Below are positions 7,421-19,497 of a DNA stretch of 64,000 nucleotides, one piece after another. The position numbers were made by a program, and so were the translations under genes. The DNA is from a virus (lineage: Duplodnaviria; Caudoviricetes). Location: the IMG/VR virus record IMGVR_UViG_3300042291_001013; one strand, 5' to 3'. Every line of letters starts with the position of its first letter. The stretch's first letter is position 1. Under the pieces are notes generated by a model, which was not told the origin of the DNA, searched no databases, and saw only the letters and a program-made list of their open reading frames with translations.

Positions 7421-9547
7421 TTACGAACCAGAAACCACGTATCTTGCAGGCGACGCAGTGACTTCCGCTCGATTTTTTGGATACGTATTAAACAAATCCG
7501 GGTTAGGGCGGCAATCTACAAAATTCCCGCCAGGTGCCGATCCTGTGGGAATTTTGTTGGCAGTGTTTCTAACACCCACAACGTCTAACCGGGTTTGGTT
7601 GTAGGCTTCTCTTATGGCACCAATGCCGGCCTGTCCGGTCAGTGTGGTGGTGTCAAGCACTTGGTTCAGCAAGTCCCAGGCCCCGCATGTGCTGGGGTCA
7701 CTGGCAAACTGTGGAAAACTTTCTACTAAAGAATATGTGCTTGTGGTGGTTCCAGATTGGAATACAAAATAGTTTACTCCAGCCTGACTTTGCCACTGTG
7801 CTTGTTGGTTCATGATTGTGGCCATGTAGTTCCATGCTGTGTTTAGGATTGCAACTTGTGCGTTAGCTGACAGTGCCGCAATAGCTGTGTTGGCATTGCC
7901 AATGTATGTTAACACTGTTGCATCATCGGGCGCTGTGGCAATATTGTTGTATGCAGTGTTTAGTGCGGCAAGACTACCTGCGGCCTGCAATGCATTGATT
8001 GCTGTGGTTGCTGTGTTGAGTTGTGCGGCAAAGTTGTCATGGTCAATCATTATGCCCAGCACATCACACATGGTAAGAGTGTTATAGCAGCCAGTGCCAG
8101 TGGCCACTGAGTTGTCAAAGAAATTAGTCACTGACGAATCAACTGACGCTGTCTGCGCTTGTACCAAGCCCAGATCATCCATGGTCAACAAGTTGCCACG
8201 GTCAATAGGTTGCCAATAATCAGTGTCATTGAGTGCTGTTCCTGCAGGGACGTCTTGCTGACTTTGATAAGCCTGTGGAATTACCCCGCTGTTGTCGGCC
8301 ACAATTTCATTGGGCAAGTAATCACGATTACTGTTCCATGCAGGATCACGACCTGCCGCATAAATTGCCTTGCCAAATGCCGGCCATGTTGAGTTTGAAA
8401 GATTGGGTATGTTTTGTAATGATACTTGCAGAGCTTTGTTGGCCACAGCAGTGGCCTGTGGAATAATCTTGCCCAGTTCATCACAGCCTGACGCACTTGG
8501 CAAATACAAGTTGACAATTTCTGCTGTGCCACTGTTGACATAACCTTGTTGACTGTAGACATAAATGGGGCCTTGGGGCGACTGCGTTAACAATGTGTCA
8601 TAGCTGAGTGGAAACATCACCAAGGGATCCAGCAGTTGGTCTGCACTTTCAATGTTGGGTGTGGTAATTTCCAAAATGTCCAACAACTGTTGCAGGTTTT
8701 CTCCAGTGATCAATGTCAAGCCATCGTAGGCTTTTTTCTGCAATGTGTCAAATTGATTGCTAGTAAGACCATTGGGGTTAAACACACTGACTTGATTGTT
8801 GTTGACCAGGTCCAGAATCTCAGATGGTGCAAGCCCTGACGCAATCAATGCTGATTGAATTGAAGGCAATGCACCAGACAGTTTGGCCACTTTGGTGATT
8901 TGTTGTATCAACCCAGCTGGGGTGCCGTATAGCTCAAGATTTTTTGTATCAACCAGTTTGCCCTGTCGTGATACATCAGTACCAAATCGATCAAACACCG
9001 GGTTGACTTTGACTACATCAGCCGATGTCAGCGAATCCATGGTGGTAAACGTTGGCCCAAGATAGTTGTCAGCATTGACTGCTGAGTTAATAAACTTATT
9101 TGTGGTTTGTACAAAACTGTACATGGACAGAAATCCCTGTGCAAATCGCCCCACATCAAGTCCCACGTCATTGCGACCCAGGTAAGCATTGCCAGTGTCC
9201 TGAATCAAGTTGCTGAATCCATAGGGTTGAAAGGTAGAAGTATCAGACAAACTAGGCAAATATTCGTATCTCAAGTAAGGGTAATTGCCCACTGGTGAAT
9301 AAGGTATGCTGTTGCCCAGGGCAGGACATGCAGTGCTACCAATGCTCAACAGTTTGTCCAGCGTGGATTCTGTTTTGAAACTCTGTGATGCATAATAGTT
9401 GACTGCGGTCAACCAATTGGCAATTGCTGTGGTAGCGTTGAAACTGGTGATAGCAGTTGTCAACGCTGTGGGCAAAGTTTTGATACCAGTGTTGTTTAAA
9501 AACCCGGCCAATGCTGTCAGCTGTAACGGTGTTGAAACGCTGGCCAT
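7421..9547 (-). CDS. Large virion structural protein (baseplate/tail region), putative
   Basis: 708 aa, Thr/Ala/Asn-rich, adjacent to the PAAR gene. Confidence 0.6.
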   Translation of the reverse strand: MASVSTPLQLTALAGFLNNTGIKTLPTALTTAITSFNATTAIANWLTAVNYYASQSFKTESTLDKLLSIGSTACPALGNSIPYSPVGNYPYLRYEYLPSLSDTSTFQPYGFSNLIQDTGNAYLGRNDVGLDVGRFAQGFLSMYSFVQTTNKFINSAVNADNYLGPTFTTMDSLTSADVVKVNPVFDRFGTDVSRQGKLVDTKNLELYGTPAGLIQQITKVAKLSGALPSIQSALIASGLAPSEILDLVNNNQVSVFNPNGLTSNQFDTLQKKAYDGLTLITGENLQQLLDILEITTPNIESADQLLDPLVMFPLSYDTLLTQSPQGPIYVYSQQGYVNSGTAEIVNLYLPSASGCDELGKIIPQATAVANKALQVSLQNIPNLSNSTWPAFGKAIYAAGRDPAWNSNRDYLPNEIVADNSGVIPQAYQSQQDVPAGTALNDTDYWQPIDRGNLLTMDDLGLVQAQTASVDSSVTNFFDNSVATGTGCYNTLTMCDVLGIMIDHDNFAAQLNTATTAINALQAAGSLAALNTAYNNIATAPDDATVLTYIGNANTAIAALSANAQVAILNTAWNYMATIMNQQAQWQSQAGVNYFVFQSGTTTSTYSLVESFPQFASDPSTCGAWDLLNQVLDTTTLTGQAGIGAIREAYNQTRLDVVGVRNTANKIPTGSAPGGNFVDCRPNPDLFNTYPKNRAEVTASPARYVVSGS

Positions 9548-17309: not shown

Positions 17310-18026
17310 TCACATATTTAGCATGTAGTACTGTTCAACCTTTTTCCACCACAAGTTGCGGTATTTTTCAAATTCTGCGCCTTCCAGCACAAATTCCTGG
17401 TATTGAGGTTTTCCTACAATATTGTGTTGCTCATCCAGATCGGGTTTGACGCACATCAAAATTACACCTTTGCGTATTTTTGTACCGTGCAATTCATTGT
17501 GTGCTTCTGCGTAGGCGCACAGTTGCACAAAGTAGTCGTCAATCCACTCGCGCTTTTTGGGTTTGTTGGTCTGCTTGTAGTCTAGTATGGCTTCTTCATT
17601 CAGGTGTATGCCTGCGCCATCTGTTGTGCCTGCGTATACGCTGGGAAAGTATAGTGGAACTTCAATGCCCCAAAATTCATCAACGTTTTTGAGTCCATCT
17701 CTAATCACAGTTTCGGCCATGATATGACTGGGCCAACTAAAAGGGTTGGACCCACGTTCTTTTTGCTCACCTGTTTTGACATAGTGTTCAAGATAGGTAT
17801 GCATACGTGTGCCGCGGTTGGCAGCTTCTGTTGTGATTTGTTGTGCTTTTTCTGCACCCACGCGACGACGCCACTGATTCAGTGCTTCAACTTTTTCTGG
17901 GGGTTTTGTCTTGTCTAAGATTGTGGTTACTGAGGGCAAGTTGTTGCCATCGGGTGTGGCATAGTAACGCCGGCCCTCTATTGTAACTCTAGGAATGGGC
18001 TGGTAGTTAAATTTTGGATTATACAT
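17310..18026 (-). CDS. PD-(D/E)XK superfamily exonuclease
   Basis: LPSVTTIL, GTRMH, YAGTTD, ILDYK, QLCAY. Confidence 0.88.
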   Translation of the reverse strand: MYNPKFNYQPIPRVTIEGRRYYATPDGNNLPSVTTILDKTKPPEKVEALNQWRRRVGAEKAQQITTEAANRGTRMHTYLEHYVKTGEQKERGSNPFSWPSHIMAETVIRDGLKNVDEFWGIEVPLYFPSVYAGTTDGAGIHLNEEAILDYKQTNKPKKREWIDDYFVQLCAYAEAHNELHGTKIRKGVILMCVKPDLDEQHNIVGKPQYQEFVLEGAEFEKYRNLWWKKVEQYYMLNM

Positions 18027-18066
18027 AATTATAGTCAATTATAGACAATTATAGTCCAGTTGTCAA
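18027..18066 (-). promoter_or_regulatory. sigma70 promoter with three tandem 10-bp TATAAT-containing units
   Basis: AATTATAGTC/AATTATAGAC/AATTATAGTC at 18027-18056; TTGACA at 18061-18066 lies 17 nt from the middle unit. Confidence 0.7.
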
Positions 18067-18099
18067 CTATATTTGAAAACTTTCTCCGCAACCGTTGCG
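18067..18099 (-). pseudogene. Orphan duplicate of the iscA 3' end
   Basis: Reads RNGCGESFQI-stop versus RCGCGESFRV-stop at the live iscA end (18804-18836). Confidence 0.75.
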
Positions 18100-18111
18100 G
18101 TACGGTTGAAT

Positions 18112-18807
18112 TCAGGATTGTACATTGCTTTGTTTGATTATCCAGTCATACAATGTTTGTGCAATTAATTCGTGACCTAGTTCATTTGGGTGGCTACACT
18201 CACGCAAGTATTGATTTGGTGATCTCTTTGAAAAATCTATTGGAGTTTCATACCCAAATAGTTGTAAACAAGATTTGTGATATATTTTATCAGTATCAAT
18301 CCCAGGCAAGTTTAAATTAACATCATTCCATCCAACAATGTAATAATCTTTTATTTTGTATTGTCGGCATATTGCTTGCATGCTCAACACATTTTTGTGT
18401 AGATTAAAGTTAAGTGTAGAAATTGAAGTAAAATGCTTTACATAATTTTTAGAAACTTCATCAATTTGATTGGCTCCTAAATCAACAACTTTAAAACCAT
18501 CAAGGTCTTCAACACCAAAAATAGTTTTAGTTTCATCTATAGGAGGACGGAGATCATCTAATAGTATGCATTCTCTCGTAGGGGTAGTGATTAAAAAAAC
18601 TGCTATAGAATTTTCTAAAAGTACGTCTGTACGTTTAACATAGTCAAGCAGTTGCAACACTGATCTGCTGTTGCTGGATCCGCTTATCCCTAAATTAACA
18701 AAATTGGTTGCGGATAATTTAGAAGACAGCCGTGCTCCAAATGAATCTGTTTCTAGAACGCCAAGGCCCACAGTCCAACTGCATCCAAAGACTGCTAATG
18801 CAGTCAT
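18112..18807 (-). CDS. SGNH/GDSL-like hydrolase or acyltransferase
   Basis: FGCSWTVG, NLGISGSSN, SHPNELGH; AT-rich. Confidence 0.75.
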   Translation of the reverse strand: MTALAVFGCSWTVGLGVLETDSFGARLSSKLSATNFVNLGISGSSNSRSVLQLLDYVKRTDVLLENSIAVFLITTPTRECILLDDLRPPIDETKTIFGVEDLDGFKVVDLGANQIDEVSKNYVKHFTSISTLNFNLHKNVLSMQAICRQYKIKDYYIVGWNDVNLNLPGIDTDKIYHKSCLQLFGYETPIDFSKRSPNQYLRECSHPNELGHELIAQTLYDWIIKQSNVQS

Positions 18808-19127
18808 ACCCTAAAACTTTCCCCGCAGCCACATCGATCTCTCTCATTGGGATTTGAAAATTCAAAGCCTTCGTTAAGGCCTTGGCGCACATAATCTACT
18901 GTCATGTTTTGAAGATACACATTGTCTTTTTGATTTACTAGCACAACAAACTCTGGCTGTGCATAATTGATAACATACTGTTCTGATGTGTATTCCTTGA
19001 CATACTCTAACACATAAGCAAGTCCGGAGCAACCTGTGGTCTTAACCCCAAGACGAATGCCAGCGTAGTTCTTGGCTGTGACAAGTTTTTGTATTTTGTT
19101 TCGGGCAGTGTCAGTGAACGAGATCAT
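18804..19127 (-). CDS. iscA: Fe-S cluster A-type carrier IscA/HesB
   Basis: TTGCSG and CGCGESF motifs. Confidence 0.92.
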   Translation of the reverse strand: MISFTDTARNKIQKLVTAKNYAGIRLGVKTTGCSGLAYVLEYVKEYTSEQYVINYAQPEFVVLVNQKDNVYLQNMTVDYVRQGLNEGFEFSNPNERDRCGCGESFRV

Positions 19128-19497
19128 GCTTTTTGCGATAGTCTTCTACCGCGGCCTTGATAGCGTCTTCTGCTAGGATTGAGCAATGTATCTTAACTGG
19201 CGGGAGGGCAAGCTCTTCAGCAATCTCTGAATTCTTAATCGCTCCCGCGGCGTCGAGCGACATTCCTTTAACCATTTCGGTGATGAGCGAGCTTGAAGCA
19301 ATTGCTGAGCCGCAACCGTAAGTCTTAAATTTTGCGTCCGTAATAATGCCATTTTCTACTTTGATTTGTAGTTTCATTACGTCGCCGCAAGCAGGTGCGC
19401 CAACCATACCAGTACCAATATCAGTATCACTCTTGTCAAAAGAGCCGACATTCCGGGGATTTTCATAGTGATCAATTACTTTGTCTGAGTATGCCAT
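19111..19497 (-). CDS. iscU: Fe-S cluster scaffold IscU
   Basis: YENPRNVG, GAPACGD, YGCGSAIAS, KIHCSILA. Confidence 0.96.
   Translation of the reverse strand: MAYSDKVIDHYENPRNVGSFDKSDTDIGTGMVGAPACGDVMKLQIKVENGIITDAKFKTYGCGSAIASSSLITEMVKGMSLDAAGAIKNSEIAEELALPPVKIHCSILAEDAIKAAVEDYRKKHDLVH

Follow-up and report, generated by a model that had tools for sequence, protein, structure and literature searches.

A stranded iscA gene end beside an SGNH-like cargo gene in an uncultured giant phage: probable scar of recombination at a slot between core genes

How an accessory gene can be gained by a phage without mobile-element machinery, and which traces such a gain leaves at the level of nucleotides, is the question raised by a locus in which the gene iscA appears to have two 3′ ends, one alive and the other stranded beyond a neighbouring cargo gene. 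The locus lies in a window of 64,000 nt (the whole stretch of DNA analysed, to which all unprefixed coordinates refer). All genes of its isc-exonuclease region are on the minus strand, in the order iscU, iscA, a 231-codon cargo ORF, a non-coding stretch (18111-18027) and an exonuclease gene, followed by a pectate-lyase-like tail fibre gene (Table 1). An earlier note had proposed that incoming DNA carried a replacement iscA tail plus an AT-rich SGNH gene and displaced the old tail. Relatives bearing on this proposal were collected by IMG/VR scans with two iscA proteins and the cargo protein, by a metagenome scan with the cargo protein and through one DNA-pattern match. The resulting set comprises 185 loci (the best 80 per query), while contigs bearing iscA number more than 300 in total.

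Table 1. Features of the iscA-exonuclease locus, in window coordinates
Feature	Position	Strand	Basis or remark
iscU, first gene of the Fe-S assembly pair	19111..19497	minus	128 aa; Pfam NifU_N, E 1.5e-52
Live iscA	19127-18804	minus	Pfam Fe-S_biosyn (PF01521), E 3e-18, 66 bits
iscA nt 1-284, apparent resident-type part	18844..19127	minus	Identity to insert-free relatives
iscA nt 285-324, apparent donor-type replacement tail	18804..18843	minus	Best identity to SGNH-bearing relatives
Cargo gene, putative SGNH/GDSL-fold hydrolase-like protein	18112..18807	minus	231 aa; motifs, fold model, Foldseek
Apparent vestigial overlap of cargo 3′ end and donor exonuclease 5′ end	18105..18125	minus	21 nt; 18/21 identity to L087
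Junction scar	18094..18104	minus	11 nt; maps cleanly to neither parent
Apparent stranded resident iscA 3′ end (last 8 codons and TAG), now non-coding	18067..18093	minus	26/27 to type-I relatives
Spacer with exonuclease promoter	18027..18066	minus	40 nt; 12/12 sigma-70 consensus
PD-(D/E)XK exonuclease gene, downstream anchor of the hotspot	17310..18026	minus	PHROG 298 exonuclease, E 3e-53; Pfam PDDEXK_1 weak

The 3′ end of iscU overlaps the start of iscA, and a promoter-like site lies 5′ of iscU (19862-19834). The iscA TGA overlaps the cargo ATG (18807) as ATGA, the cargo gene being translationally coupled to iscA. Before the exonuclease gene stands a promoter with its −35 element at 18066-18061, a 17-nt spacer and its −10 element at 18043-18038, matching the sigma-70 consensus at all 12 positions. 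The stretch 18018-18056 (minus strand) consists of three to four tandem copies of a 10-nt unit, each with TATAAT; the last copy overlaps the exonuclease ATG, and a transcript from the consensus promoter would get a leader of ∼5 nt with no Shine-Dalgarno sequence; this array is kept in all of the at least 23 relatives of type I (see below). In most relatives, among the loci listed, the exonuclease gene directly follows iscA. Related IMG/VR contigs reach 349 kb, and a search of phage GenBank records returned only distant matches to iscU and the exonuclease. The annotated genes of the isc-exonuclease region include no integrase, transposase or homing endonuclease, which agrees with the earlier remark that no integrase is nearby.

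Both iscA ends reported earlier are present. The live gene ends in RCGCGESFRV-TGA (18836-18804) and the second copy, beyond the cargo gene, in RNGCGESFQI-TAG (18099-18067), both on the minus strand; their 18-nt cores (18830-18813 and 18093-18076) are identical at 16/18 positions and, as had been noted, the two differences are synonymous. When the core 18-mer was searched over the whole window with up to three mismatches, three matches were obtained, namely the live tail, the second copy and an unrelated three-mismatch site (9464-9481); in shuffled sequences the mean was 0.06 matches, and three were never reached. In an ungapped scan of the last 27 nt of each ORF against the 3.5 kb downstream of it, the iscA pair scored 18/27, a score equalled by eight other ORFs, and therefore the similarity within the window is suggestive and does not by itself prove homology. 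The two tails are different alleles (about 19/27 identity overall) that share at most nine consecutive identical bases. Live iscA keeps the C-terminal C-G-C motif expected of an A-type carrier, ends in C-G-C-G-E-S-F and has the Fe-S_biosyn domain; in the remnant, Asn replaces the first Cys of the motif, and no ORF lies upstream. Two methods applied to the whole window found no other convincing displaced gene end, and two candidates (D7 and D8) were examined and dropped.

Homology is carried by the comparison with relatives, among which two kinds of empty site occur. In type I, iscA ends in RI-TAG and is followed by a 40-nt promoter spacer and then the exonuclease gene. Type V has no promoter: its iscA ends in RV-stop, immediately before the exonuclease start or overlapping with it. 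The remnant (18093-18067) is identical at 26/27 positions to the live iscA end of type-I relatives (L004, L005, L006, L021, L043 and others; at least 23 contigs), the sole difference being a change of CGA to CAA, i.e. of Arg to Gln, and the 40-nt spacer is identical at all 40 positions to L023-L026 and at 37-39 to the other 19 type-I relatives listed. These identities mark the stranded copy as what would be the old type-I iscA tail, once directly before the exonuclease promoter in an ancestor, and they bear out the idea that the insert displaced an old tail. The earlier prediction that insert-free relatives would end in GCGESFQI-stop before the exonuclease promoter was right as to position and wrong by one base as to sequence, since at least 23 of them end in GCGESFRI-TAG, with Arg in place of Gln. 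Two exact-pattern IMG/VR scans, one for the joint and one for the CAA variant of the tail, returned no second copy of the window arrangement, which is known on one contig only. The remnant is almost without decay, and this could mean either a recent event or some constraint; probably the remnant itself has no function, its only effect being that the exonuclease promoter retains its native upstream sequence. A role as terminator or structured RNA was considered and rejected: no terminator-like site was predicted at 18060-18130 and the RNA fold of the junction region is not significant (z = −0.8). Among the listed loci, the nearest relatives differ between the iscU, iscA and exonuclease genes, in line with a highly mosaic population.

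This mosaicism extends into live iscA itself. Its first 284 nt are 94-100% identical to insert-free relatives, with 99/100 positions shared with L001 over nt 101-200 and 84/84 with L003 over nt 201-284. Over nt 285-324, identity to these two closest iscA relatives falls to 28/40 (70%), all differences from L003 being synonymous. The change of source at nt 284/285 is sharp (84/84 versus 28/40 to L003; Fisher p = 3.5e-7). For the last 40 nt, the best match among the relatives listed is 34/40 (85%), reached by SGNH-bearing L082 and L095 and by one other contig. As the cargo gene is 86% identical at the nucleotide level to L082, its closest donor candidate, and iscA nt 1-284 only ∼76%, the tail appears to share the history of the cargo gene and not that of the rest of iscA. 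These comparisons uphold the proposal that the incoming DNA brought a replacement iscA tail together with the cargo. Because the population is highly mosaic, the left breakpoint could nevertheless stem from a separate, later exchange.

At the right-hand joint, the comparison is with a donor-type arrangement found on at least 11 distinct contigs, in which iscA, an SGNH-like gene and the exonuclease gene are tightly linked with overlapping ends, and neither promoter nor remnant is present. In all SGNH-bearing relatives, the cargo stop falls inside the first seven exonuclease codons. A trace of this overlap is seen in the window, where 18125-18105 matches the live exonuclease start of L087 at 18/21 positions and includes a dead exonuclease ATG (18125-18123); the generic tail scan likewise pairs this segment with the live exonuclease start. 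The incoming piece described earlier as tail plus cargo thus stands, with the addition that it also held this 21-nt donor exonuclease-start overlap. Similarly, of the 33 nt first described as remnant, the last 27 are the old iscA end, while the first six (the ‘RN’ codons) belong to the 11-nt scar. By a manual reading of the alignments, this scar (18104-18094) can be matched to iscA nt ∼288-298 only at the price of one indel pair plus a TTG-to-CAA change, and since it maps uncleanly the right joint is known to within ∼10 nt. In the coordinates of resident iscA, the incoming piece would have entered between nt ∼284 and nt ∼288-298. As a separate observation, through the TTG-to-CAA change relative to iscA, a perfect 13-nt palindrome (18094-18106, minus strand) has replaced a direct repeat of Cys-Gly codons; changes of this kind are made by template switching at quasi-palindromes.

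The cargo gene is AT-rich, as had been noted, with a GC content of 0.35 in its ORF versus 0.44 in the window and in iscU-iscA and 0.45 in the exonuclease gene; in all lineages, its GC content lies below that of its flanks. As to fold and motifs, the SGNH label is upheld (Ser10, His206 and Foldseek matches), with curated sequence families below threshold: the sole Pfam match, DUF6071, scored 16.4 bits (cut-off 27), and PHROGs gave nothing relevant. In block I, F-G-C-S-W (residues 7-11), Ser10 and Gly8 are invariant in 22 homologues; the canonical Asp is replaced by Cys in most homologues, and two members keep G-D-S. Block II (N-L-G-x-x-G-S-S-N) is nearly invariant in the family, the window protein has G-W-N-D as block III, of which Trp alone is invariant across the family, and block V contains an invariant H206-P207 in H-P-N-x-x-G-H. 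The Asp usually sought three residues upstream of His206 is absent, so that catalysis by a Ser-His dyad is possible. An AlphaFold model (pLDDT 87, pTM 0.86) has a three-layer alpha/beta/alpha flavodoxin-like fold, and its top 40 or more Foldseek matches in the PDB are TesA, GDSL esterases and acetyl-xylan esterases (E down to 6e-6, TM 0.5-0.66). Motifs and model together point to a putative SGNH-fold hydrolase-like protein. Its closest homologues are five proteins (P0001, P0002 and P0004-P0006; 82-91% amino acid identity), all of which end like the window protein, and no relative from the metagenome scan exceeded 84% identity to the cargo protein. The closest of them, P0001, has a nine-residue N-terminal extension that resembles the iscA tail in another frame and is an apparent gene-calling artefact. 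In a more distant relative on a 343-kb contig (L086:4001-5734), the same SGNH-like gene (70% amino acid identity) does not lie beyond iscA but upstream of iscU, which is followed by two iscA paralogues.

Taken together, these comparisons make it highly probable that a ∼750-nt piece from a related phage, consisting of an iscA tail, an SGNH-like gene and an exonuclease-start overlap, stranded the resident iscA end. The ancestor would have had iscA, the 40-nt promoter spacer and the exonuclease gene; in the donor, the SGNH-like gene would have stood between iscA and the exonuclease gene, each stop overlapping the next start. The transferred piece would have held the last 40 nt of a diverged iscA, the SGNH-like gene and ∼20 nt of overlap with the donor exonuclease start. 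On its left, a homologous exchange inside iscA at about nt 284 would have left the gene intact and encoding the same protein; on its right, a non-homologous joint to resident iscA at nt ∼288-298 would have produced the 11-nt scar and pushed the resident tail downstream, where it would have become non-coding. One homologous anchor with an illegitimate joint close by is the pattern expected of homology-facilitated illegitimate recombination. A register-shifted (unequal) crossover between co-infecting genomes and then a separate homologous exchange in iscA could give the same product. The homologies, the two breakpoints and the recurrence in relatives are read directly from the alignments; the number of events (one or two), the enzymes and the direction of transfer are what we infer from them. 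The reading of the locus as a tail-replacement recombination, put forward in the earlier note, finds support in both the identity of the type-I tail and the change of source in iscA.

The window is not an isolated case. The slot between iscA and the exonuclease gene accommodates at least 10 unrelated cargo families, including B12-radical-SAM enzymes, an Asp/Asn-hydroxylase-like protein, a dCMP deaminase, other GDSL-like proteins and proteins of unknown function. A search of other accessory-gene junctions for displaced tails, as suggested earlier, was rewarded at this same slot: three further independent joints of an exonuclease head to an iscA tail are observed in relatives (L009-L014, L110 and L126), and a fuzzy-pattern search for remnants in the other slot inserts was positive in these only. 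In the L009-L014 arrangement, known from five contigs of five samples, the joint lies between a gene for a 225-aa G-D-S-W protein, on the iscA side, and a 347-aa gene, on the exonuclease side; it puts ∼289 nt of the exonuclease gene in frame with iscA codons 90-107 through a 5-nt microhomology, and L013 represents one parent of the arrangement. L110 has its joint between two cargo genes, one of 323 aa next to iscA and one of 339 aa next to the exonuclease gene; here, nt 1-29 of the exonuclease gene run into the final ∼47 nt of iscA. In L126, the order is iscA, a gene of the 339-aa type, the joint, a gene of the 323-aa type and the exonuclease gene, with exonuclease codons 1-42 (126 nt) joined to ∼10 nt of the iscA end. 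L110 and L126 hence contain the same two cargo genes in opposite order (70% and 57% amino acid identity). In each order, the two genes are separated by an exonuclease head and then an iscA tail; register-shifted recombination between differently loaded genomes would predict such stacking, and the opposite orders suggest that the slot may stack cargo in this way.

The breakpoints differ in all four cases (the window, L009-L014, L110 and L126), and therefore no recombination signal is claimed. A 9-nt patch shared by iscA (its Ser-Asn-Pro codons) and the exonuclease gene was considered as such a signal and rejected, as it fits L010 with a 5-nt overlap and L110 loosely, but neither the window nor L126. 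It is more speculative, and rather unlikely at present, that the slot is a dedicated stacking site, to which cargo genes would be added in succession by register-shifted recombination between the exonuclease 5′ region of one genome and the iscA 3′ region of another; the iscA tail would accompany each cargo gene because its end, with GGAG and the overlapping stop, supplies the translation start of the cargo.

Other features of the slot were met in the same relatives. In L013:2272-3200, the 347-aa cargo gene is apparently broken, with a 63-aa ORF left at its start, and therefore cargo genes in the slot appear also to decay in place. The iscA tail of L110 (4014-4085, minus strand) and of L126 (3540-3600) contains, out of frame with iscA, an ATG that shares the reading frame of the 339-aa cargo gene downstream; it is present both with a live tail (L126) and with a remnant tail (L110), so that it represents either an over-extended ORF or a true start within the iscA end. 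A second variable slot is seen as a gap of 0.7-1.8 kb between iscU and iscA in L019, L027, L032, L038, L054, L055, L060, L072 and L110, and in L110 this gap holds a 575-aa ORF that is radical-SAM-like by eye.

The same product might have been reached by another route, namely by a single crossover in the iscA tail with a mini-circle containing tail, cargo and exonuclease head, as has been proposed for PeSL mini-circles, or by a double-strand break in resident iscA at nt ∼285, repaired by copying of donor sequence and subsequent end-joining. T4-type phages have documented mini-circles (PMC2839356), and in resident coordinates the left breakpoint (nt 284/285) nearly coincides with the beginning of the stranded tail (nt ∼288-298), as a point insertion would give. 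Such a route is unlikely nonetheless: the donor arrangement has no flanking repeats able to excise a circle, two tails with so short a longest identical run are a poor substrate for homologous integration, and the long exonuclease heads in L010, L110 and L126 (289, 29 and 126 nt) fit unequal crossover between whole genomes.

Far less probable is the reverse history, in which the two-tail arrangement is ancestral and the form with iscA, promoter and exonuclease arose by deletion between the tails. Recombination between direct repeats can delete a flanked gene and the slot clearly gains and loses genes, but the source of the duplication would then be left unexplained, and the dead exonuclease start at 18125-18105 needs an earlier tight linkage of cargo and exonuclease. 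The distribution is also adverse, with type I on at least 23 diverse contigs versus the two-tail form on one, and the live tail is of another allele than the remnant.

A low-GC gene bracketed by direct repeats also brings to mind a target-site duplication made by a transposon, a homing endonuclease or an integrase-borne element, an origin that is most improbable here, given that the two copies are different alleles (with 16/18 identical core positions) and not one target duplicated, that the divergence of the live copy matches that of the cargo gene, that the annotated genes of the region contain none of the corresponding enzymes and that the cargo is a single hydrolase-fold ORF. Insertion by a transposon or integrase was rejected on these grounds. 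Equally improbable is a chance resemblance or a chimeric metagenome assembly, in spite of a within-window score that lies within the noise of the generic tail scan and of an arrangement known from one contig, because chance cannot produce identities of 26/27 and 40/40 to relatives, an assembler would need a shared k-mer for a chimeric join where the joint has an 11-nt scar absent from both parental types, and the analogous L010-type joint recurs on five contigs from five different samples.

The preferred reading, a donor piece that stranded the resident iscA end, can be set beside several known systems. Homology-facilitated illegitimate recombination was first described in naturally competent bacteria. 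As in its published definition (PMC3240628), one end is anchored homologously, here in iscA, and the other is joined nearby at little or no homology, with no site-specific recombinase; in this locus, the homologous switch and the illegitimate joint indeed lie close together in iscA. Unlike the known cases, which concern transformation or conjugation into bacterial chromosomes, the process would have taken place here between co-infecting phage genomes.

Displaced orphan gene ends are also a feature of Rhs and CDI loci. In these and in T6SS effector/immunity displacement arrays (PMC5361080), a new gene end plus cargo recombines in a conserved part, the old end is orphaned downstream and repeated events stack modules, a course of events similar to that proposed here. 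There, however, the new end is a different toxin tip and the exchange serves to alter function, whereas here the peptide encoded by the replaced iscA tail is unchanged, the stranded piece measures only 27-37 nt and there is no toxin/immunity logic. PeSL-mediated modular shuffling in the hyperplastic regions of T4-type phages (PMC2839356, PMC4122927) resembles the present case in that accessory genes are swapped, gained or lost at fixed slots between core genes without integrases, with a strong sigma-70 promoter at the border of the slot. It relies on repeated promoter-plus-stem-loop cassettes on both sides, in contrast to this locus, where the joints lie between the coding ends of two core genes; a PeSL cassette was rejected, as the consensus promoter stands on the exonuclease side only and neither a terminator nor a significant stem-loop accompanies it. 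The cargo was also rejected as a moron, since no promoter or terminator is predicted at its borders and its ATG overlaps the iscA stop. Phage mosaicism has reportedly been explained by Hendrix and colleagues with a model of illegitimate recombination that leaves novel joints and gene remnants. The locus shares with such joints a sharp change of ancestry at or near gene borders and a non-functional remnant at the joint, and there is no difference in principle; homeologous recombination by phage recombinases is treated elsewhere (PMC2327257, PMC3945230). The finding thus adds a clear case to a kind of recombination scar that is already known, and its added value lies in four independent scars at one slot.

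For annotation, the locus is a warning that short orphan gene ends may be misread as small ORFs or may falsely extend neighbouring genes, as apparently happened in P0001 and in an ORF of L110. For phage biology, it shows at the nucleotide level the gain of an accessory gene in an uncultured giant phage without mobile-element machinery, with both parental arrangements still circulating and with one homologous and one illegitimate junction. The four independent scars at a single slot, including the same cargo pair in both orders, amount to a small natural experiment on how a hotspot between core genes is filled. If the slot were in truth a dedicated stacking site, it would represent an integrase-free cassette system whose ‘attachment site’ is the end of a coding gene.
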